Source: Escherichia phage SM_A2
Strand: one strand, 5' to 3'
Sequence record: PP920552.1
Length of the DNA stretch: 44,881 nt
Below are positions 18,002 to 35,551 of this stretch, piece after piece (within the stretch, counting starts at the first letter, position 1; each line of letters starts with the position of its first letter). The notes beneath the pieces are model-generated. The model saw nothing but the letters and a program-made list of their open reading frames with translations. It had not been told where the DNA came from and ran no database searches. The position numbers were made by a program, and so were the translations under genes.

Positions 18002-21000
18002 CGATTATCTACGACGTCACAGGGCATAAAGGCGGCGGCGGCAAACAGCACACCCCGCAGGAGACGCCCGATAGCCTGCATTCGCTGGCTAAAATCCGCA
18101 TCTTGCTTGCGCTGGGGGAAGGGGAATTCGAAAGTATTACCAGCGCCAGCGAATTGCGGCAGCGTGTATATCTGGACGGGACACCGATCCAGAACGCGGA
18201 CTTGTCCGAAAACTTCCCCGGCGCGCGTGTGGAGTTCCGCCCCGGAACACAGCACCAGGATGTGATCCACGGATTTTCAGCGGTGGAAAGTGAGCAATCT
18301 GTCGGCGTAAAACTGGAAAACGGCACGCCGTGGGTGCGCCAGATTAACGACACCAGCTTGGACGCCGTGCGCATTCGCATCGGCATTCCGGCACTGTACA
18401 CAAACGAAGATAATGGCGACCTGGTGGGCGGGCGCATCGACTATAAGATCGTTGTGTATACGGATAACGCCGACCCGCGTGAGTTCAGATTCGCCGCCGT
18501 TGGTAAAACAATGTCGCTATATGAGCGCGACCACCGCATCGAATTACCTCCGAACGTTAACACCGGCTGGCGCGTGGAGGTGCACCGCATAACGGCAGAC
18601 TCCACATCGGCGAAAGTGGTTAATGATATCCGGGTGCAGTCCATCACTGAGATTATTGACGCCCGCCTGCGTTACCCGCTAACCGCGCTGTTGTTTGTGG
18701 AGTTCGACGCCAAAGCGTTCCAGAACATCCCGCGCGTGTCCATTAAGTGCAAAGGTCGCAAAGTTCTAATACCGAACAACTACGACCCGATCAATCATAC
18801 CTATGCCGGGTACTGGGACGGCACGTTTAAACGCGCATGGACGGATAACCCTGCGTGGCACTGGTACGATATTTGTATTACTGAGCGCTTCGGCCTCGGT
18901 CGGCGTATCAAACCGCAAATGCTAAACCGATACGCGCTCTACCAGATTGCACAGCGCTGCGATCAGTTGGTCAGCGACGGCAACGGCGGACGGGAAATCC
19001 GATTTAAGAATGATATGTACATCCAGTCGCAGACAGACGCCTGGACCGTGCTTAAGGATTTAGCTGCCATCTTCGCTGGGATGACCTGGTGGGGAAACCA
19101 AATGTTGAATATCGTCAGTGACCAACCGGTCGCAGCAGTGTCGCACACTATCACCAACGCCTCGGTTATTGATGGCCGATTCGACTACGCATCTGGCAGC
19201 CAGAAAACGCGGTATTCCACTTTCGCGGTAGCATACGGCAACCCGAAAAACCACTATGATGACGCTATCGCAACGGGCCAGCGCGTCGAACTGGTGCGCC
19301 GCCATAAGATTAACCGTCTTGATATTACGGCGATCGGCTGTACGCGCGAGTCAGAAGCGCAACGCCGGGGGCACTGGGCGCTAATCTCAAACCAGCTTGA
19401 CCAGCAAGTTAGTTTTAAGGTTGGCATGGAGGGGTTATTCTTTATCCCCGGTAGCGTAGTCGCGATCGCAGATACAAACATTTCTGGCGGATTCGAGACT
19501 CGTGGCGGACGACTGTTGTCGGACCCCGGAACGCGTACCGTGCTGAACACGGACAGCGAAATCACGTTCCGCCCTGGCGATAAGTTCCTGGTGCGCACCG
19601 ATAGCGGTAATGTGGAGACTCGCGAGATCGCCAGCGTCAACGGCAACAAGGTCACGCTAAAAACCGCACTGGATGCCGACCCGATTCCAGACCAACCGTT
19701 TTGCGTTGATGGCGATGATATCCAGTTGCAAAAATTCCGCATCACCGATCTGGAGTATGACGACTCTACGAGCACTTTCTCGGTGCGCGGGATTGAATAC
19801 AACGATAGCAAGTATGATGCCGTTGATAATGGCGCTCGCCTTGATCCTGGTATCTTCACGCAAGTGCCCGACGGGGTAATGAAGGGGCCGGAATCCGTGA
19901 CCATCACCCCGTCGCAGATTTCATCGCAAGGACAGCTAATCACCAACGTGGATATTGTTTTCCCGCCGGTGAAGGACGCCGTGGTGTATGAAATCCAGTG
20001 GCGACGCACCAGCTTGCAGAATATGGAAATCCAGTGGGGTAACGACTGGGTGAATATCCCGCGCACGGCATCGAACGGTGCGCACATCCCTAACGTGTTC
20101 TCAGGTAACTACCAGGCACGCGTCCGCGCAATTGGCATGGGCGAAATCTCGTCACCGTGGGTGTCTTCCGCAATCACGCCGGTTGAAGGACGCCTCGGCG
20201 GTCTTAACGCGCCTATCATCACCAACGCGATTTCGGGTCTGCACCAGATTCTATGGAAGTGGAACCACAACAACGCCGCTACGGATATCTCATACACCGA
20301 GCTTGAAGTGCGCAAGACGGGTGAGACGGAATGGAAATTTCTAACAAACGTCCCATATCCGGGGGCGGAGTATGCGCAAACATCGCTGGAGTTCGGAATT
20401 TACCAGCAGTTGCGCGCCCGTGTAGCGGATAAAATCGGCAACCTGTCGGACTGGTCGGCCCCGTTTGAAGGGCAGGTGAGTGACAAAGTTGACGAGTACA
20501 TGAAGGGGCTTGATGACGAGTTCTTGACTTCCGAGGATGGTAAACGCTTCCAGGAAGCAATCAACACGATCCCGCAGGGTATTTACGAGGCGATGCTCAC
20601 CGACGCGCAGCAATTGTTCAACGCCCGCGCCGAGTACAAGGGTATTTATGCGGAAATCTCGGTCGCGTATAACGTGGCGGCGGACGCCCACAAGGCGGTC
20701 GCTCAACTGGAGACGTTGATCGGCACGCGACTTGATGACGCGGAAGCTGCGATCCACACGTTGCAGACGGCGCAGAGTACGCAGGAACAAGCGTTCGCCC
20801 AGTACCAGCAAACTGTTGCCGCTAAGTTTTCGGAACAGGAAGCCGCCATCCAGTCAGTGCAAACGGCAACGGCGGACGTGGCAGGCGCACTGGCGGAGTA
20901 CAAGACCCAGGTCGCGGCACAGTTCGGTCAGCAGTCCGCCGCAATCGAGCAGAAGATGACGTCTACGTTTAACCACTCCGGTGGTAACGCTACATACAGC

Positions 21001-22699: not shown

Positions 22700-22727
22700 G
22701 TATTACACCGCTCAACCACGAATGCAA
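22700..22727 (-). promoter_or_regulatory. sigma70-like promoter with ATTGGTTGCA motif (leftward, lipoprotein gene)
   Basis: Read on the minus strand: ATTGGTTGCAT supplies TTGCAT (-35), 16-nt spacer, TAATAC (-10, fwd 22700-22705), about 30 nt upstream of the lipoprotein ATG. Confidence 0.5.
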
Positions 22728-22747
22728 CCAATTTATGAGGATTTAGC

Positions 22748-24341
22748 TATGGCAGCGGGTACTCTATCCGTAACGAATAACAGCAAGGCGGTTGTAGGGG
22801 TCGGCACAACGTTTACCGCGTACAAGGCTGGTGACTTCTTAACGCTGGTGGTAGGACAAGTCCCCTACACCGTAGCGATCGCGTCCATTGAAAGCGCAAC
22901 CGCGCTCACGCTGGTGTTACCGTTCGACGGCCCAACGGCAACCGGCCTTGCGTGGGACGGCGTTAAACGCGATACCATGTCACTGGCAACGATGGGCGTT
23001 ACCGTCCAGGCACAGAAAGCATTGCGTTTGATGATTGCAGATGAAAACAACTGGCGCGCAATCTTCGGCGACGACGAGCAGATCACGGTAACGCTGCCGA
23101 ATGGGCAAGTCATGCAGGGTATGTCATGGGGATATCTGTCACAGTTAATGAAGCAGATCGACCCGGAGGAAATTCTCAACCTGCAACAGCAAGCCGCCGC
23201 GTCTGAAGCCGCCGCGAAAGGATTCCGTAACGAGGCCGAAGGCTTCAAGAATGACACTAACACGATTAAGACGCAGACTAACCAGATTAAGACGGATACC
23301 GGTGCTATTCGCGACCAGGCCAACACCGCGAAGACTGCCGCGCAAGATGCCCGAGATGCCGCGCAAGATGCCCGAGATGCCGCGCTGGGATACCGGGATG
23401 AAGCTGAACAATTCAAGAATGAGATCGCCACGTCGCAATTTCCAAAGCTGGGCAGCAAGAATAGATTCACACAGCCGCAGGAGTTTTTCGCACCATACCC
23501 AGGCCTCAACCTGACGTCTACTGCCGTGGGTGAGGATTATCTTGGTCGAACTATCCTGATTGAGAACATCACAGGCAATAGGCTTAACTTCTTCTACACG
23601 AAGCAAGGCGACAACACCGGGCGCTACACTATCAGTCTTCCGAAGCCAGAAAATACGCAGGTTATGACGATCGGCCTTGATGGTGGTTTATCGCTTAACG
23701 GCGACTCATATAACGCCGGGGAAGGTAGCGGAGTAGACTTCAGTGTCGGGCAGCAAGGGTGGCGTCAGGTAGCAGGACCGTGGTCAAACGGCCCGATAAG
23801 CGGCAATATGTACGGAGCATTGTTCTCGCAATGCGTGCAGGGGCTAAACGTTGGCCCCTACGGTGCCAACGGAACGCAGGGCAGATGGTTTATGCAGCGC
23901 TTTTACGACACATCAGCGAATATCTTCACGCGCGTGCAAACTAACGCGACACCGTGGCAAAACTGGTATAAAGTCACCACGTCCGCGGTATCGGATGAAC
24001 GCCTGAAGGATATCAAGGGCAATCTCAATGTGGAGGGTGCACTGGATAACATCAACCGCATGGAGTTTAAACTCTTCTCATTTAAAAATGAGAAGTCAGA
24101 AAGCAAACAGCCTATTACGCGTCGCGGTGTTATCAGCCAGCAGATCCGTCTTATTGACAAAGAGTACACAACCGAAGTAGGCGGATTCTACCACTTGGAT
24201 CAGACCCCGATGCTGTTAGATGGCCTGGCGGCGATCAAAGCATTGCGTGCGCGTGACGAAGCGAATAAGGCTGAAATCGCGGAATTGAAAGCTGCCGTTG
24301 AGGATTTGAAAGCCGCGGTCGCGGCACTGACAAAAGCATAA
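22748..24341 (+). CDS. tail fibre protein with C-terminal intramolecular chaperone domain
   Basis: ATG 22748 with GAGGA RBS (ORF track opens at 22722); coiled-coil segment with a 21-bp tandem repeat (AQDARDA x2); C-terminal SDERLKDIKG-type motif typical of self-cleaving chaperone domains. Confidence 0.8.
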
Positions 24342-24347
24342 TGAGAA

Positions 24348-24369
24348 GGGGCCGTATGGCCCCTTTTTT
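24348..24369. terminator. bidirectional intrinsic terminator
   Basis: GGGGCC-GTAT-GGCCCC hairpin followed by T6; between the tail fibre gene and the first minus-strand gene. Confidence 0.8.
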
Positions 24370-24943
24370 AGTTTGAGTTTTCCCAGTCCATTTTGCGCCG
24401 CACTAGCGGGCTTTCGTAATACTCCTTCCCATCCACTTCCACTAAGGGCCAGTCATTAACAATGACGTAAGGCTCTGCGATATCCTCGATCACGCCGTGC
24501 GCGCTATGTTGCCCGAAATCTACACCCACCAGGATAACCCCGGCAACTCGACGAGCAAGATATTCGCGGGCGCAACGCGCCTCTACCAGTCCGCGACGGA
24601 TGCCGCTGGTAGCTTTGACCTCGTAGGTCCAGACGGCATCGATCACATGCTCGCGGAAGTCGGGGCCGGATTTAACCTTGCGCTTGCCAACCATGATAAT
24701 ATCGCCGCGGTCGATAGTGTTAGCGCTAAACAGGCCGGTACGCATTAGCAAACCTTGCGGGATACAGCTACGCCCGCCCGCCTGCCCTTCGAGGTACATG
24801 CCTGCAAACATTTCGCCCAGCACACCGACGAGTCTGCTTTGCTTGCACGCGTCGGATTTATACCGCCACTGGTCAAACTCGATGCTTGCTATCATTGCCG
24901 CCAGGTGGAATTGTTTACCAGATATTTCATATTCGCCGTACAT
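24368..24943 (-). CDS. hypothetical protein with possible PD-(D/E)XK nuclease signature
   Basis: 191 aa; segment SGPDFREHVIDAVWTYEVKATSG fits PD-x12-E-V-K. Weak, motif-only assignment. Confidence 0.35.
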   Translation of the reverse strand: MYGEYEISGKQFHLAAMIASIEFDQWRYKSDACKQSRLVGVLGEMFAGMYLEGQAGGRSCIPQGLLMRTGLFSANTIDRGDIIMVGKRKVKSGPDFREHVIDAVWTYEVKATSGIRRGLVEARCAREYLARRVAGVILVGVDFGQHSAHGVIEDIAEPYVIVNDWPLVEVDGKEYYESPLVRRKMDWENSN

Positions 24944-24985
24944 TGTGTGGTCCTCATTGATGCGGGCCGAAGCCCGCGATTAGAA

Positions 24986-25540
24986 TTATTTAAGTGCGCC
25001 AGTTACCAGTGTTTTTTCCATGTTACGGAAATCTTCCGGCGTCATGCAGATTTTCGACCCGTCTTCGCCGGTGAGCACGACCATAGGCTGGACGTCCTGG
25101 GCTACAACTCCAAAATTGGCGGCCCTAACAGTCTTGCCGAAAGAGGCCACCGTGTCCTCCGCAACGCGAATTGCGCTGTTATACGCATTAATCTCACCGT
25201 CAAGGCGCACGGACAGGCCTTTGAGGCTGTCGAATTGTGCTGCCGTTGTATCGATCTGAGTCTCGTCATGCACGGTCATGTAAGACTCGCCCAGCAGGGC
25301 GGCATACGCCACCAGATCCACGATGTTATCTTCCTGGTGCTTACGGTGCTGGCGCACCAGCTTCAGGCAGATCAGGAAGGTCCAGGCTTCTTGCTCGGAC
25401 AGGTCGCGACCGGTAAGCGCGTTAAACACGGCGGCGATTTGTTTAGCGCTGCGTTCTTCTTTCGCGTTGTCATAGCCGTTTTCTTTCCCGCGCTGTTCCA
25501 TAGTGGTGGCGGCGTTTTTGCAGTATTCGTATGCTTTCAC
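24986..25540 (-). CDS. hypothetical protein
   Basis: 184 aa; probable GTG start at 25540 with AAGGG RBS; no confident motif. Confidence 0.5.
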   Translation of the reverse strand: MKAYEYCKNAATTMEQRGKENGYDNAKEERSAKQIAAVFNALTGRDLSEQEAWTFLICLKLVRQHRKHQEDNIVDLVAYAALLGESYMTVHDETQIDTTAAQFDSLKGLSVRLDGEINAYNSAIRVAEDTVASFGKTVRAANFGVVAQDVQPMVVLTGEDGSKICMTPEDFRNMEKTLVTGALK

Positions 25541-25617: not shown

Positions 25618-26075
25618 GTGAATTTTGCAACGTTTATTGCGTAAATTTTCGGGACCAAATCACCACACGCCCGACGAATTGCCGCGATGTTCTTCTCGCA
25701 ATCTTCAATGATGACCAGTTCCGACACGTCCGCATAGCAGACCATTTTGAACACGGCGCACGCCTTAAACTCTGGCGGCGGGGTGTCGTCCAGCATGTGG
25801 CGCATAAACAACCGGCCTGTCGGGAATACCTCCAGTTGTTCGGCGGTGGTTTCCCAGCATTCCCGCTGCCGGTTGGTCAGATACGCGATTTCGAAGCCTT
25901 GCTCTTTGTACATGGTCAGCAGCGGCAGCATATCCATGTTCAGATCTTCGCGGACGTGCGCCTTGTGCCACTTCGCCCAAAAGGTGGATTTAGTTTTTAT
26001 GCCCGGCACAAGGTCGGCGCGCGCATCGCTTGATCCATTAATAACGCCATCCAGATCACAAATCAGTAATTTCAT
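25605..26075 (-). CDS. HAD-superfamily phosphatase (putative nucleotidase)
   Basis: N-terminal motif LICDLDGVI (DxDG[TV], HAD motif I); 156 aa; downstream motifs consistent with HAD fold. Confidence 0.6.
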   Translation of the reverse strand: MKLLICDLDGVINGSSDARADLVPGIKTKSTFWAKWHKAHVREDLNMDMLPLLTMYKEQGFEIAYLTNRQRECWETTAEQLEVFPTGRLFMRHMLDDTPPPEFKACAVFKMVCYADVSELVIIEDCEKNIAAIRRACGDLVPKIYAINVAKFTCNQ

Positions 26076-26269
26076 TTCAATTCCTCAATCAAATTTGCAC
26101 GAACAGTACGGGCGGAAAACGTGTCACACACAAGATGCCAGCTGGCAGTCATTACAAGCCAGCCAGTAAGGTCCATGCCCAGGAGGTGTTCTGGCCGTGA
26201 CACGCGACGCACTTTGTTCTCCCTCGGGTTGATTTGGTAGCGTTTAACAATTTCGTCCACGACGCGCAT
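26072..26269 (-). CDS. hypothetical small protein
   Basis: 65 aa from ATG 26269; ATGA-type overlap with the downstream HAD gene; no RBS seen; start uncertain (ORF track opens at 26305). Confidence 0.3.
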   Translation of the reverse strand: MRVVDEIVKRYQINPRENKVRRVSRPEHLLGMDLTGWLVMTASWHLVCDTFSARTVRANLIEELK

Positions 26270-26276
26270 ACTGCGA

Positions 26277-26762
26277 TCAACGATTAAGATATTCACGTAG
26301 CTCACTCTCGCTCATTATTTCAATTTGTGCGCCGCCGGTGGGCGGCGCTTCGTCAAAGATTATCAATTGCTGGCACTTGTTATTGCTCGGCCCGACTTCA
26401 CCGGTGACTGCATGTATGAATCGGACCCGCCAGTCCAGAAGAATTATCAGGTTTGCAGTCTTCCTGGCCAACCGCGCCCACTTTGTCGACGTGTCCTGAT
26501 TCAGTAGCATGACGGTCCGACGTCCATGCGCTGCGCACTTGACCCACGGCAGCGGATCGGAATACGGCGGGTTGCACCACTTCCACCCTTTCAACTCTGA
26601 CCAGTCCGCATCGAGCGCGCTGTGCTCTGCCGTGAAGTAACGCGGTAGAAGGTGGTTGTCATCGCTCGCCGCCATGTCATATCGGAATCGGTACTTCCGG
26701 CGCAGCGGTTTAAATAAAGCTGGCGGCGTGCGCCAGCTATCCTTCTGTTCACTCTTCAGCAT
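26277..26762 (-). CDS. DNA N6-adenine methyltransferase (phage Dam-type)
   Basis: Motifs WRTPPALF near the N-terminus, DMAASDDNH, and catalytic NPPY (WCNPPYSD); 161 aa, typical of small phage Dam-family enzymes. Confidence 0.8.
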   Translation of the reverse strand: MLKSEQKDSWRTPPALFKPLRRKYRFRYDMAASDDNHLLPRYFTAEHSALDADWSELKGWKWCNPPYSDPLPWVKCAAHGRRTVMLLNQDTSTKWARLARKTANLIILLDWRVRFIHAVTGEVGPSNNKCQQLIIFDEAPPTGGAQIEIMSESELREYLNR

Positions 26763-27207
26763 GGCCTGGGTCTATCGCGTATAAAGGGACTTTATTGCCG
26801 GTTTTCATAATGCGCTGGACGCGCTTTGACTCCTCGGCGCTAAGCGGTCGGCAATCGGAGTGGTAGCTACCGTTTGCGCGCCACGCCATAAGCACCAGGT
26901 CTTTCCGGTCGATCTTAGACTGGCGACCTTTGGGGCGCACGTACTCCTCGGCACGTTTGCAATGCTCACGCAAACCATCGGCAGTGATGCGGTTTAGTGC
27001 AACGCTGGTTGTGTATCCGGTGCGCTGCATAATCCCCATCAATTCGAAAAGCAGTTCTAAGCGCTCCTCTAACTCCTTGCGCATCTTTTCCTCGCCTTCA
27101 TAGCTCGCCAGGTAGGTATCCGCCAACGCGTTCGCACGTTCGGCCTGTTCGCGGGCTTCGAGGCATTGCGCGGCCCAGTAATTTTTCTCTTCTTGTAAAA
27201 TTTTCAT
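26749..27207 (-). CDS. hypothetical protein
   Basis: 152 aa; ATG 27207 with GGAGA RBS; charged coiled-coil-like N-terminus; no motif recognised. Confidence 0.5.
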   Translation of the reverse strand: MKILQEEKNYWAAQCLEAREQAERANALADTYLASYEGEEKMRKELEERLELLFELMGIMQRTGYTTSVALNRITADGLREHCKRAEEYVRPKGRQSKIDRKDLVLMAWRANGSYHSDCRPLSAEESKRVQRIMKTGNKVPLYAIDPGHAEE

Positions 27208-27288: not shown

Positions 27289-27612
27289 TCACGCATAAAA
27301 ATTTGGGTCGCGCGCTACGTCTACCAGGTAAAGGTTGCTTATGCGGTTGCCGTAGTGCCCTGGGGTGCGCTGGCGGCATACAACGGCGAAGCCTGGGGGG
27401 ATTGTATTGCCTGTCGCAATAATCCACGCCACGCGTGCGCCAGATAGCGTCTTGCCATTATATTCGATACGTGTGCCCCCATCGGCGGTATTGATGTTAC
27501 CAATTTTGCAGCCGGTGGACTTCAGACGAATGACGCCGGTTTTGCTGTCGTAGGAGAATAACTGGTTAGTCATTGCAACCGAAAAATCAATGGCTTCGAA
27601 TGTAGTATTCAT
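27289..27612 (-). CDS. degenerate HNH-like domain protein
   Basis: Segment IEYNGKTLSGARVAWIIATGNTIPPGFAVVCRQRTPGHYGNRISNLYLV resembles phage HNH-type layout, but the expected catalytic His positions are Ala/Arg; ATGA-coupled to the upstream MTase-like gene. Confidence 0.45.
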   Translation of the reverse strand: MNTTFEAIDFSVAMTNQLFSYDSKTGVIRLKSTGCKIGNINTADGGTRIEYNGKTLSGARVAWIIATGNTIPPGFAVVCRQRTPGHYGNRISNLYLVDVARDPNFYA

Positions 27613-28319
27613 TTTAAATTTTCCTCATTGACTGCTATCGCGAAGCCGCGCGGGGTGAGCGACCGGATTAATTTTGTGCGGGCGGACTTGCCTCCGAGGC
27701 GACTATACTGCTTCGAGTACCCTTTTTCAACGAATACAGGCTTTTTCTCAGGCATACGAAAGCCGTTGCCGGTCCATAAGCAGGTCAGCTTCGGATATGA
27801 ATCGCGGGCGTTGATGTATTCCGGGAAGAGCGGGTGCGCGTCATCCTCCGGCAGATAGCCGCCATACTCCCACGGATCAAACGAGTGGTCTGGCTTGCGC
27901 CACTGGGTGGAAAGCACACTGCGCGGATTCTCAATCATATACGGAACCTCAAAGAAGTCCCCCAGAAAAGCGGCGATCTTCGCGGTGCGCACTGCCTTAA
28001 GCTGAAAGGCGGGGTCTTTTGCACGCTTGCGCGGGAAAGCAGGCGCGCCGCTCACTGCCAGATCCGTGCACGGTGGAAACGCATAGATGATATCTGGCGT
28101 ACCGAAATCGCCATTCATCGCACGGTCTACAAAGTCCAGATCGATAAACTCATTGCGATACCGGATTCCGCGACCATAAATCCGGTAGTCCAGATAAGAC
28201 CCATGATCGGCTTCGGAGTAGTTGAAACAGTAGCATTTGTGCCCCATTTCGGCAGCACGCTCGATCATCAAGCCGCTGCCGTCAAACAACGACCAGATAG
28301 TCATTTTTGCAATAGTCAT
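27609..28319 (-). CDS. compact C5-cytosine methyltransferase-like protein
   Basis: Motif I LFDGSG (FxGxG), motif IV FPPC (Pro-Cys), motif VI ENP (ENV-like); only 236 aa, so no obvious room for a full target-recognition domain; ATGA-coupled to the helicase stop. Confidence 0.55.
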   Translation of the reverse strand: MTIAKMTIWSLFDGSGLMIERAAEMGHKCYCFNYSEADHGSYLDYRIYGRGIRYRNEFIDLDFVDRAMNGDFGTPDIIYAFPPCTDLAVSGAPAFPRKRAKDPAFQLKAVRTAKIAAFLGDFFEVPYMIENPRSVLSTQWRKPDHSFDPWEYGGYLPEDDAHPLFPEYINARDSYPKLTCLWTGNGFRMPEKKPVFVEKGYSKQYSRLGGKSARTKLIRSLTPRGFAIAVNEENLK

Positions 28320-30211: not shown

Positions 30212-30250
30212 ACTATACCGCTATGCGACCAATTCAGCAACCAATAAATC
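30212..30250 (-). promoter_or_regulatory. sigma70-like promoter with tandem ATTGGT(T/C)GC motifs (leftward)
   Basis: Minus-strand reading: ATTGGTTGCTG (-35 = TTGCTG, fwd 30235-30240), 17-nt spacer containing ATTGGTCGCA, TATAGT (-10, fwd 30212-30217); lies inside the 3' end of the VRR-NUC gene. Confidence 0.45.
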
Positions 30251-30499
30251 GCAGTCGGATATGCTGTCGATAACGCGAACGTCAGCACCGCGGCGGGCCA
30301 TTCGCTCATGTTCACGTACCTGGTGCGGCTTAGGTTTTCCTCCGGGGCGCTTCACTTCGACGAACACTATTTTGCCGTTGATGATAATAATCAGGTCGGG
30401 CGCACCCGCGCGCCCCTCCCATGCAAGTTTTCGGCAGAATCCGCCGACCTCTTTCACCCGTTTCATCAGGTGACTTTGAATCTTGCCTTCTGGTGTCAT
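30221..30499 (-). CDS. VRR-NUC domain nuclease
   Basis: 92 aa; PD...(D/E)xK-type core APDLIIIINGKIVFVEVKRPG characteristic of VRR-NUC. Confidence 0.75.
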   Translation of the reverse strand: MTPEGKIQSHLMKRVKEVGGFCRKLAWEGRAGAPDLIIIINGKIVFVEVKRPGGKPKPHQVREHERMARRGADVRVIDSISDCDLLVAELVA

Positions 30500-32790
30500 T
30501 ACTTCCTGTACCTGTACATAATGTCGCCTTCGGCGGCAAGTGGGAAGCCTTTAGCCCAAATAGGCAGGTCGCACATCAGCGCGCAAAGCTCCTCGGTAGT
30601 GTAGTCGTCGGTGTCCGGCACTTCTGTGATCAATTCGTCGTGTACTGACAGGACGATTTCATACCCCGCAGCTTCAACGCCAGGCATGGACCATGCGAGA
30701 ATATCGCGACACAACGCCTGTACGATGTTCTCCGTCAGTTTGCCGCCGTAGGTATACTGGAATCCCCACTGGCGCGTCGTCTGATTCTCGCCCTGATATT
30801 TAATGCGTGTGCTGGTGCGCTTCTTGCCGGTGTCTTCGTCAATCTCGGTCGTGACCGACAGCGCGATGCCTGGGTAGCTCATGATGCGCCCGGACGGCAA
30901 CTCGATTTTCAACCACCACCCCGCGGCGTTCGGGTCGTCGCGCTCCTCGTCGAAGGTTGGGTCGTGCTTCGCCTTCGTGCGGACTATCTTGAGCGCTTTC
31001 TTACCATCCGGGCGAACGTTCGCGCCAGCCCAGTACGCTTTGCCAGGATTGCGGATTGCACACAACACCGCGTCCTCAAGCTCGGCCCAAAAGGCTACCG
31101 TCTTCGGGTGAGCCTCGCGCCACATGCGTTTAATCGCATCACACGTAAGCCATACGTTTTTCGGCAGTATGTAAGTCGGGCGCTCGTCCTTCTTGCCAGG
31201 CTTCGGCGGTCGCTTCGCTTCGTTAATGCGGGCGTACTCATAACCCCGTTTAGCCGCTGCCCAAATGTGATCGGGGAATGTGCCTTTCATGACGTCCGCC
31301 ATCGCGTAAAGGTCGAGGCCCAGGTTTTTAGCAAACTGCAGGAACGCGGCAACGCCGCCACCATAACCCAGTCCCAATTCGCACGCCTTACCAATCTGGC
31401 GTAAGTCTTTTCGGTTGGCTTTGATGTATTCCGGGTCGAGGCCAAACATCTTACCGGCAGTTTCACAATAGATATCGCGACCCGCCCTAAACACCATTAG
31501 CGCGGTTTTCTCACCAGCGATCCAGGCAAGCCCGCGACCTTCCACGTTAGAATAGTCAGCTACAACAAACTTCTTGCCCTTAGCCGGGATAATGCACCCG
31601 CGAACGGTCGAGGCCGTTAACTTCGATATGTCATACGCCCAGTGCGCTGTCCCGCGTAACAGGGAGTTGATGCCGTTGGTGAGCATGTGCGACCGGACCC
31701 AAAAAGAAACGTCGCTCTCGCCTTCACGGCGCTTAATCTTCCCTTCGTGGTCGTCGCTATACTCGCCGCGTGCCAGGTTTTGCGGCTGGAAGCCCTTACC
31801 GGCCCAGCGTAGCGTGCGTTTCGCCCCGCCATACTGGAGACACCCACGACGGCGACCATCTGCGGATAAGCCATTAACGAGCGGATTGTACTTAGTCGAT
31901 GCCGTTGATGACGCACCGAGGCGCATCTCGATAAGCACTTTGCCCTCGTCGGGGAAGTCCGGGTCTTCCAGCAGGTCGTTAAGCGTGGATTTCTGCGCGT
32001 TGTGGATTGTGAACGCAGGCGCGAGGTCGCGCAGCGCTGGCAGGAAGTCATTGCCTGTCAGCTTACCGCCGAAGCGCTCCCATGCTTCTTCCTTCAATTC
32101 TTCCTTATGCGCCTGCACCGCTTTGATCGCGGCGTTCGCCAGGTCAACGTCCACATAGAAGCCGCGGTCGTTGATCAACTGGTCAATAAGCAGGATTTCA
32201 TCTTCCTTCGGCGTGTTACCCCAGTCCGGTATGCGCCAATAGACTTCCCTCATCGCTATAATATCCAGTGCGGCATAGCGCAGGAATTTAGCCCACTCCT
32301 CGGGGTGCGTCTCGCGCGTGTAGCGGCGGATTTTGTAGGTCTTGGGGGTTGGCTTACAGAATCGTTTGATCAGCGCCTTGCCCGCCTTATCCTTCGCGTG
32401 CTCTGCGTCGACGCCCAACACCTGGCACTGCATATCGAGGCTACCCGGCAGCGCGTGGCGAAAGGCCATAATCATGGTATCCTCGATCTGGCCTACCGGC
32501 AGGTCAATGCCCCACTTCTCGCGAATAACCAGGCGGTCAAACAGGAGGCCGTTAGCCATCACTATTTTTGCTTTCTTGCGGGATACCTGGCGGAGCGCCT
32601 TGCGCAGTTCACGCGGCATTGTTGGGGACTCGGTGCAATCCCATGTCTGCACGCGGCCCTCGTCTATGGCGTACGTGCAAATCATAATCTCGGTTGTTGG
32701 GTGTTCTGCGTAGGCGTATGCGCCCACTTTCTTCAGGTCCACCCCGCTAAATGTCTCGGTATCGAGAAAAAGGCGTTCGAAGTCTTTCAT
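30499..32790 (-). CDS. DNA polymerase I-like (family A) with 3'-5' exonuclease domain
   Basis: 763 aa; N-terminal exo motif LFLDTETFSG (DxE); C-terminal polymerase motif C-like SVHDELITEV; basic finger-like segments. Confidence 0.9.
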   Translation of the reverse strand: MKDFERLFLDTETFSGVDLKKVGAYAYAEHPTTEIMICTYAIDEGRVQTWDCTESPTMPRELRKALRQVSRKKAKIVMANGLLFDRLVIREKWGIDLPVGQIEDTMIMAFRHALPGSLDMQCQVLGVDAEHAKDKAGKALIKRFCKPTPKTYKIRRYTRETHPEEWAKFLRYAALDIIAMREVYWRIPDWGNTPKEDEILLIDQLINDRGFYVDVDLANAAIKAVQAHKEELKEEAWERFGGKLTGNDFLPALRDLAPAFTIHNAQKSTLNDLLEDPDFPDEGKVLIEMRLGASSTASTKYNPLVNGLSADGRRRGCLQYGGAKRTLRWAGKGFQPQNLARGEYSDDHEGKIKRREGESDVSFWVRSHMLTNGINSLLRGTAHWAYDISKLTASTVRGCIIPAKGKKFVVADYSNVEGRGLAWIAGEKTALMVFRAGRDIYCETAGKMFGLDPEYIKANRKDLRQIGKACELGLGYGGGVAAFLQFAKNLGLDLYAMADVMKGTFPDHIWAAAKRGYEYARINEAKRPPKPGKKDERPTYILPKNVWLTCDAIKRMWREAHPKTVAFWAELEDAVLCAIRNPGKAYWAGANVRPDGKKALKIVRTKAKHDPTFDEERDDPNAAGWWLKIELPSGRIMSYPGIALSVTTEIDEDTGKKRTSTRIKYQGENQTTRQWGFQYTYGGKLTENIVQALCRDILAWSMPGVEAAGYEIVLSVHDELITEVPDTDDYTTEELCALMCDLPIWAKGFPLAAEGDIMYRYRK

Positions 32791-33885: not shown

Positions 33886-34128
33886 TCAAGCATTTTCATT
33901 AAAAAGATTTCTGGTCACGTAGTTGGTAGCGTTCTCGATCCAGCTTAGCGGCGGGCGTTCGATGTTCTTTTCCACCCAATCGACGGCAACTTCGCTATAT
34001 CCGTCATCCAGCCAGCGGGTCGGATGGCGAATCATCCACGCCACCATTAACACGCCTTGCACGCAATGCAGGATAAAGCCCAGCGCGCCGAGCAAAAACA
34101 TCAATAAGATTGCGAATACTTTATTCAT
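33886..34128 (-). CDS. small membrane protein (hypothetical)
   Basis: 80 aa; two hydrophobic helices (VFAILLMFLLGALGFIL, GVLMVAWMI). Confidence 0.45.
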   Translation of the reverse strand: MNKVFAILLMFLLGALGFILHCVQGVLMVAWMIRHPTRWLDDGYSEVAVDWVEKNIERPPLSWIENATNYVTRNLFNENA

Positions 34129-35551
34129 TGCTTAAGTCCTCGTCAGTAGCTTCCGACCACGCAGGGCGCGGGTCGTCGATTGGAGCTAACACCGGTTTGG
34201 CAGGTGCGCGCGTGATTTTATCACACAGCTTCGCCCACACTTTCGGTTTTTCGTCCTTCAGTACCTTCTCGGCATCCGTAGGGCTGAGCAATGTTTCTTT
34301 GTACATCACATCGCGCTTGATCCGGGCCTTCGTGAAGATTTCAATCACTTCGCTCTCGTCCGCCCACTTACGGATCCCTTCCTTACCGGCAACCATCTTG
34401 AGGCCCAGCGATTCGCCATCGCCCGCCATGACCGCCTTGAATACCGCGGACTCGATAGCCTTGATGTGCTGGCGCATTGCGTCCAGGCCTTCATAAGCCT
34501 TGCGCAGTTCCGCAGCGCTCATAGCACCGGGGGCCGCTTCTTTCTTGCCACGCTTCGCACGTCGGGCCGCCTTCCGGGCTTCGCGGGCCATATTGCGGTC
34601 GTGATTGGCGCATTCTTCCTCGGTCGCCACGCTCACGTCGTCGCCCAGGTCTTCGTCGGTTGCCGTTGGAGGTGTCATCGTGTCGATTGCGGCCTTAGCG
34701 CGGGCACTACACTGATCCGCAAATCGGCACCACTGGCACGCATCAACGCTGGGACGGAAGTCGGCACGGGTAAGTCCCTTCTTGCCTCGGGAATACGCCT
34801 CCAGTGCGGCAATAGCGCGCTTGGATGCAAACTTCGCGAATATCTCCAGCGCTTCTACCGAAATATCCCACTCCGACGCCCCGCCGCAATACGGCTGGAA
34901 GATAACCAGGCGCACGGTCGTAATGTCGTACATAGTTTGCAGCTTGCGCAGCAGGCCGAGCGCGTACAACATAAGCTGTTTGTTTTCTTTCGCCTCGACC
35001 TTATGCCTCCCGGTCTTCAGGTCGCCAACAATCAGCATGTACGTCCCATCGGTCTTTTTCATGACCATGACCATATCGGCAGTACCGAACGTTTTAATCC
35101 TGTTGCCGTCGATCTCGTAGCCTGAGTGAAGGACGCGGGTCAGATCGGCGCGCATCTCAAGCTGGACAAACTCCGCCACTTCGAGGAGCGGTCGCCAGTG
35201 GTCGATGTACGCGTCGCACTGTTTCACCATGTCGTCGTTGACCAGTACGCCGCCTTTCGGTGCTTTAGGGTGTGCCTTCACTGGCCCCTTGCCTTCGTTC
35301 TCGACGTAGCACCCTTTATACGTCTTCGCGGTTATCAGCTTCTCACCGGCGATAATGCGGTTTAGCACCACCTCAGATACGGTGTGCATACTCGTACCGT
35401 TAATCGCGGCTTGCCCGGATTCGTTCGGGATATCTTTTTCCACCACCAGGGCAGCAGGGCAACCCATCCACTTTTTAGCACCGGATGGCCCAAGTAATGA
35501 GTGTTCTGTATTGCTACCGGATTGCGTTTTACGTTTTGGTTTAATCGCCAT
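34121..35551 (-). CDS. DUF2800-type PD-(D/E)XK nuclease (Cas4-like, Fe-S cluster)
   Basis: 476 aa; N-terminal LLGPSGAKKWMGCPA; nuclease core (IVGDLKTGRHKVEAKENKQLMLYALGL); C-terminal Cys cluster CQWCRFADQC consistent with a 4Fe-4S site. Confidence 0.7.
   Translation of the reverse strand: MAIKPKRKTQSGSNTEHSLLGPSGAKKWMGCPAALVVEKDIPNESGQAAINGTSMHTVSEVVLNRIIAGEKLITAKTYKGCYVENEGKGPVKAHPKAPKGGVLVNDDMVKQCDAYIDHWRPLLEVAEFVQLEMRADLTRVLHSGYEIDGNRIKTFGTADMVMVMKKTDGTYMLIVGDLKTGRHKVEAKENKQLMLYALGLLRKLQTMYDITTVRLVIFQPYCGGASEWDISVEALEIFAKFASKRAIAALEAYSRGKKGLTRADFRPSVDACQWCRFADQCSARAKAAIDTMTPPTATDEDLGDDVSVATEEECANHDRNMAREARKAARRAKRGKKEAAPGAMSAAELRKAYEGLDAMRQHIKAIESAVFKAVMAGDGESLGLKMVAGKEGIRKWADESEVIEIFTKARIKRDVMYKETLLSPTDAEKVLKDEKPKVWAKLCDKITRAPAKPVLAPIDDPRPAWSEATDEDLSNE

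Follow-up and report, generated by a model that had tools for sequence, protein, structure and literature searches.

The 191-aa protein considered here, encoded in Escherichia phage SM_A2 (record PP920552.1; the 44,881-nt stretch that was analysed is called the window), is probably a stand-alone nuclease of the PD-(D/E)XK (restriction-endonuclease-like) superfamily, with D81 in the place for which an earlier note on this DNA had proposed the pair P94-D95. Judging by its predicted fold, it is very probably an active, metal-dependent enzyme of that kind. DNA is the somewhat favoured substrate because of the gene context; any single biological role that might be given to the protein is, at best, doubtful. 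It represents a new orphan family within a very large and well-known superfamily -- an unsurprising finding, since phages often carry small orphan PD-(D/E)XK nucleases. What is gained is a testable annotation, metal-dependent nuclease with the candidate active site E44, D81, E108 and K110, for a gene so far listed as "hypothetical" or of "unknown function". The Dhillonviruses (SECphi4/18, Bas14-18, HK578) are standard test phages in work on anti-phage defence, and a third nuclease in them helps in interpreting triggers, toxicity and escape mutants.

The gene, its signals and its family

The open reading frame described in the earlier note is present, on the minus strand and with an ATG start. 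The gene and the signals around it are as follows:

24368..24943, minus strand: coding sequence, 191 aa, ATG start; predicted PD-(D/E)XK-fold protein, orthologue of HK578 gp26, SO-1 gp26 and SM_S22 CDS0030; PHROG 10558
24951..24955, minus strand: Shine-Dalgarno-like GAGGA, 7 nt 5' of the ATG, read from the sequence
24962..24977, minus strand: hairpin GCGGGC-UUCG-GCCCGC, without a U tract, after the stop codon of the upstream DUF6378 gene (24986) and before the Shine-Dalgarno
24346..24365, both strands: GC-rich hairpin common to the 191-aa gene and the convergent tail-fibre gene (22722..24341, plus strand)

The last of these hairpins lies 3' of the stop codon and is shared with the convergent tail-fibre gene, so the 191-aa gene ends the leftward operon, beside the tail-fibre terminator as the earlier note had it. 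Its computed stability is -18.7 kcal/mol on the plus strand and -15.7 on the minus strand, a value equalled by none of 200 shuffles; a T run follows it on the plus strand, and a weaker tail on the minus strand. The hairpin upstream of the gene (computed folding energy -13.6 kcal/mol, z -2.4) is invariant in four Dhillonviruses, in one of which (LM40P1) the coding sequence has 75% nucleotide identity and the surroundings of the hairpin have diverged; a role in mRNA processing, stability or attenuation is possible.

The gene is shown by these comparisons to be real, to belong to the core of its genus and to be under strong purifying selection. By tblastn, the protein is found in 200 phage records, nearly all of them Dhillonvirus (StarDew, UAE_MI-01, SM_S22, HK578, SO-1, SECphi4/18 and others). 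At 60% identity or more it is present in 157 records and the major capsid protein in 162 (a ratio of about 97%), and it is thus a core gene of the genus Dhillonvirus; its position is syntenically fixed, with no insertion into another gene or an intron. Its dN/dS is 0.018 against HK578, 0.009 against SM_S22 and 0.095 against LM40P1, at dS values of 0.38-1.5. In all of the approximately 40 Dhillonvirus records whose annotation was listed it is called "hypothetical", and its PHROG carries the label "unknown function".

Two occurrences outside this pattern deserve mention. Phage mEp021 (MH706966.1), a coliphage whose genome is otherwise unrelated, has at its end (54408-54518) a 37-aa fragment with 84% identity to residues 155-191, which has the look of a remnant left by recombination; the same may hold for the 68-aa P0011. 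A copy 98.4% identical to the E. coli Dhillonvirus gene, at 18924-19496 of "Campylobacter phage A144" (MG065648.1), probably reflects a mislabelled or contaminant sequence.

Beyond the genus, a word-indexed search of 5.8 billion clusters gave 7 family proteins when queried with the single sequence and 12 when queried with a profile, and 15 came from an exhaustive HMM scan over 1.84 billion representatives; all of the relatives that could be placed sit on phage contigs. Search patterns representing the close family only gave no relative among 185,579 genomes of bacteria and archaea. No Pfam, NCBIfam or PADLOC match was obtained for the protein or for any of its 16-17 relatives, and sequence-profile searches of the PDB returned chance matches only (lysozyme, spectrin SH3 domain). 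The sensitive profile search that had been proposed as a check gave PHROG 10558 and nothing in the three profile collections: the protein founds a small family restricted to phages, which has no match by sequence in any of these collections or in the PDB.

Conserved residues and predicted fold

The earlier note had based its case on SGPDFREHVIDAVWTYEVK, residues 92-110 of the protein, read as P94-D95 ... E108-x-K110. This string does match the textbook pattern, though PD-x(5-30)-(D/E)-x-K arises in 3.6% of shuffles of the protein, and the relaxed D...(D/E)xK in 61%; by itself the string motif is weak evidence for a nuclease. In the homologues its two halves fare differently. E108 and K110 are invariant, while P94 and D95 vary already in relatives with 55-58% identity: GNQ, SRD and SKD stand at this point in the close set (55-97% identity), and the segment bearing the "PD" is missing from the shorter members of the family. 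D102 is kept by every member of the close set but lost across the wider 16-sequence family. Across those 16 sequences, with identities as low as 22%, no change is seen at G40, E44, G64, R68, D81, E108, K110, Y128, I161 and W165, and almost none at E22, A148 and P158; this gives E44 ... D81 ... E108-x-K110 as the conserved signature. The codons concerned, all on the minus strand, are:

24812..24814: E44, invariant glutamate of core helix alpha1 (G40-x3-E44, "GVLGEMF"); from alignments, helix 34-54 in both models
24701..24703: D81, invariant aspartate immediately ahead of strand beta2 ("RGD"), proposed as the motif's true "D"; from alignments, strand 82-92
24659..24664: P94-D95, the earlier "PD"; not conserved, in the predicted beta2-beta3 hairpin turn (93-96), low pLDDT in model 1; not proposed as catalytic
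24614..24622: E108-V109-K110, invariant ExK of strand beta3 ("YEVKAT"); from alignments, strand 97-112

Structure prediction, the other check that had been proposed, gave the core topology of the superfamily in two AlphaFold2 models. Model 1, from a 7-sequence alignment, has pLDDT 81 and pTM 0.80, with low confidence at residues 88-100; model 2, from a 16-sequence alignment, has pLDDT 92, pTM 0.86 and the same topology. In model 2 a strand (4-8) and a helix (10-26) precede a core made up of alpha1 34-54 with E44, beta1 59-61, beta2 82-92, beta3 97-112 with E108 and K110, alpha2 122-130 and beta4 135-143, after which come a strand (147-156), a helix (158-164), a small hairpin (167-177) and a helix (179-190). 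The predicted core thus has the alpha-beta-beta-beta-alpha-beta order and the mixed sheet of PD-(D/E)XK proteins; on the modelled strands D81 takes the place of the aspartate at the start of beta2, and E108 and K110 that of the (D/E)-x-K on beta3, and E44 in helix 34-54 corresponds to the extra acidic residue frequently found on the first core helix. Because strands 82-92 and 97-112 pair antiparallel, by their limits in model 2, D81 should face E108, and by the same limits P94-D95 would fall into the turn of the hairpin, at a distance from both. With an invariant aspartate at the canonical position before beta2, it is scarcely credible that P94-D95 forms part of the catalytic motif. The nuclease reading of the earlier note thus holds at the level of the predicted fold, and so does the E108-x-K110 half of its motif; its residue assignment was wrong, in that D81 has to replace P94-D95 and E44 has to be added.

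The leading structural matches, with two scores for each, are:

I-Ssp6803I (PDB 2ost), the top match: 7.0 / 7.5, identity 8-9%
Influenza PA endonuclease: 5.9 / 6.6
NhoI: 5.5 / 6.6
DXO/Rai1: 5.7 / 6.3
Fusellovirus D212 (PDB 2w8m): 5.8 / 6.3
Hjc: 5.8 / 6.2

Further matches were MspI, DpnI, SwaI, ThaI and subunits of tRNA-splicing endonucleases, with some 90-125 residues aligned in each; in the second structural search several matches over only about 45-75 helical residues were taken as noise. D212, the nuclease-fold protein of the archaeal virus SSV1, is 9-12% identical to the protein, with no sequence relation detected. From the superfamily at large the protein differs in matching no Pfam family profile and in having additions of its own at both ends, a strand and a helix at the N-terminus (4-26) and a beta/alpha extension at the C-terminus (147-190), in which P158, I161 and W165 are conserved.

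Two other proteins of the superfamily are encoded in the same leftward replication arm, VRR-NUC (30221-30499) and DUF2800/PDDEXK_1 (34121-35551), so the earlier description of a third nuclease-fold protein in the replication/modification arm is correct. Unlike the 191-aa protein, both are recognised by Pfam, and their sizes are different (92 and 476 aa). Their roles, presumably those of a resolvase and a recombination exonuclease respectively, would differ from its own.

The superfamily active site, as in Hjc, is of the form E-D-ExK. By analogy, D81 and E108 would bind Mg2+ or Mn2+, K110 would position the attacking water and E44 would support the metal site. The long basic beta2-beta3 hairpin (G86-K87-R88-K89-V90-K91) may touch the nucleic acid, and the protein may work as a homo-oligomer.

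Genomic context and possible roles

The contexts of the family gene in other phages show a recurrent arrangement. In Klebsiella and Enterobacter siphophages -- their hosts agree with those of phages whose capsids are distantly related -- a helicase or primase and two methyltransferases (C5 and Dam) are followed by the family gene and then by the lysis cassette. Contig L005 (42 kb, with a tailspike of the P22 type) has DNA Pol A, helicase, MT-A70, HAD phosphatase, four unannotated genes, the family gene and a holin, and contig L011 has Pol A, Nmad5, an N6_N4 methyltransferase, HAD phosphatase, three more genes, the family gene and then convergent tail genes. On L012 a primase, Dam and a faint GcrA-like protein come before the family gene, which is separated from a lysozyme by two small genes; on L009 the order is helicase, Toprim primase, RusA, one small gene and the family gene, with more genes downstream towards the terminase; and on a T7-like contig (L013) the family gene lies upstream of a peptidase and structural genes. 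In several phage lineages the gene is the last, or one of the last, in a rightward block devoted, where identifiable, to replication and DNA modification, which suggests that its product acts on DNA around the transition from replication to packaging. Our best guess is that it would be a DNA endonuclease with little regard for sequence, which would either select branched or aberrant DNA by its structure or serve to degrade host DNA.

A Holliday-junction or branched-DNA resolvase, an Hjc-like dimer which would debranch replicated DNA before packaging, is possible, if on the unlikely side. Alignment of the family with that of Hjc (PF01870) by hhalign was not significant (probability 0.8%, E 0.07, 25 columns; the Hjc set comprises Thermococcales only, which limits sensitivity), nor was that of the single sequence, and the protein is some 60 residues longer than archaeal Hjc (PDB 1gef, 2wcw). 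Moreover, VRR-NUC in the window, an "endonuclease VII" gene in SM_S22 and RusA on L009 mean that a resolvase is already to be found in these genomes, which argues against the 191-aa protein as the sole one.

We consider it quite improbable that the protein is a restriction-like endonuclease directed against unmodified DNA, of the host or of a competitor, with the phage genome shielded by its own methyltransferases. The more specific form of this proposal, a nuclease gated by modification, expressed last in the replication/modification operon and cutting DNA without the marks of the phage methyltransferases, is a little less probable still; if true, it would mean that the host chromosome is shut down or co-infecting phages are excluded, by a lytic-phage weapon resembling restriction-modification and built on an orphan nuclease family. 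The methyltransferase genes, which are common in phage replication modules anyway, never adjoin the family gene; where they share its operon they are at least three genes away, and in two contexts (L008 and L013) none was seen near it. The DNA of E. coli K-12 is already Dam-methylated, which also counts against restriction, and no relative paired as in restriction-modification was met in bacterial genomes with the close-family patterns.

Cleavage of RNA, for instance of host or phage transcripts, is about as improbable as that gated form. Enzymes of the superfamily that act on RNA (influenza PA-N, DXO/Rai1) and the tRNA-splicing endonuclease subunits do score level with the DNA enzymes in the structural comparison. 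The tRNA-splicing endonucleases use a catalytic Tyr-His-Lys triad, however, of which the family has no counterpart, there being no histidine among its invariant columns; and the neighbourhood, where identifiable, is one of DNA replication and modification. It would be stranger again for the protein to be a catalytically inert module with a nuclease fold, used for binding or regulation: inactive PD-(D/E)XK domains exist, and SEN15 and eIF3d are among the structural matches, but the four signature residues are all invariant down to 22% identity, as expected of an active site. A homing endonuclease like I-Ssp6803I, the top structural match, is ruled out by the distribution for all practical purposes, the gene being a fixed core gene, found at an unchanged position in about 97% of the Dhillonvirus records, with dN/dS of 0.01-0.1 and no insertion in another gene or intron, rather than a sporadic mobile one; the identity to that enzyme is, moreover, only 8-9%.

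Neighbouring genes and published work

No paper that mentions the 191-aa gene was found, searches by accession and PHROG id included. It is not Ksap1, a Dhillonvirus protein which directly binds and triggers the NLR-like defence protein KpAvs2 (PMC11564622) and is encoded by a neighbouring 77-aa gene, and it is neither the anti-Tmn (ORF35) nor the Nmad5 (CDS6) of PMC11846954. Phenotypes have been assigned to the SSB, the DNA polymerase and a 56-aa protein of Dhillonviruses by Stokar-Avihail et al. (bioRxiv 2022.08.27.505566), in whose supplementary tables the 191-aa sequence is absent, and to gp43 and gp45/46 (bioRxiv 2026.07.10.737580), where the gene is not among the HK578 OLD escapers. The main text of the EE09 proteomics paper mentions neither nucleases nor the CDS numbers guessed for this gene. 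A lead concerning Dazbog and HpaII methylation proved to refer to phage SPR, not a Dhillonvirus.

Upstream of the gene in the window lie those for a DUF6378 protein, a HAD/PNK-like phosphatase, Ksap1 and a Dam methyltransferase. The immediate neighbour (24986-25540, minus strand; 184 aa, HK578 gp27) has the DUF6378 domain (E 1e-9); its PHROG relatives carry the dubious label "phosphofructokinase", and a DUF6378 protein is also encoded on contig L012 of a distant homologue, on the opposite strand. Between the Dam methyltransferase and the phosphatase, a 77-aa ORF (26072-26305, minus strand) matching phrog_10685 fits Ksap1 by position and size. A 152-aa ORF (26749-27207, minus strand; phrog_10530, "DNA ligase"), which has no Pfam match and lacks a counterpart in HK578, is 82% identical to SM_S22 CDS0035, which is probably the anti-Tmn ORF35 of PMC11846954; small sequence differences are reported there to alter anti-Tmn activity. 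The 236-aa ORF at 27609-28319 (minus strand) has no Pfam match at E<0.001; its counterparts HK578 gp32 and SM_S22 CDS0037 are annotated "DNA methyltransferase", and contig L005 has an MT-A70 protein at the equivalent position. Farther along, VRR-NUC abuts the DNA polymerase gene (30499-32790, minus strand), and in the closely related SM_S22 the "endonuclease VII" gene, an extra one of about 200 aa, is found between these two, at what appears to be a variable nuclease slot.
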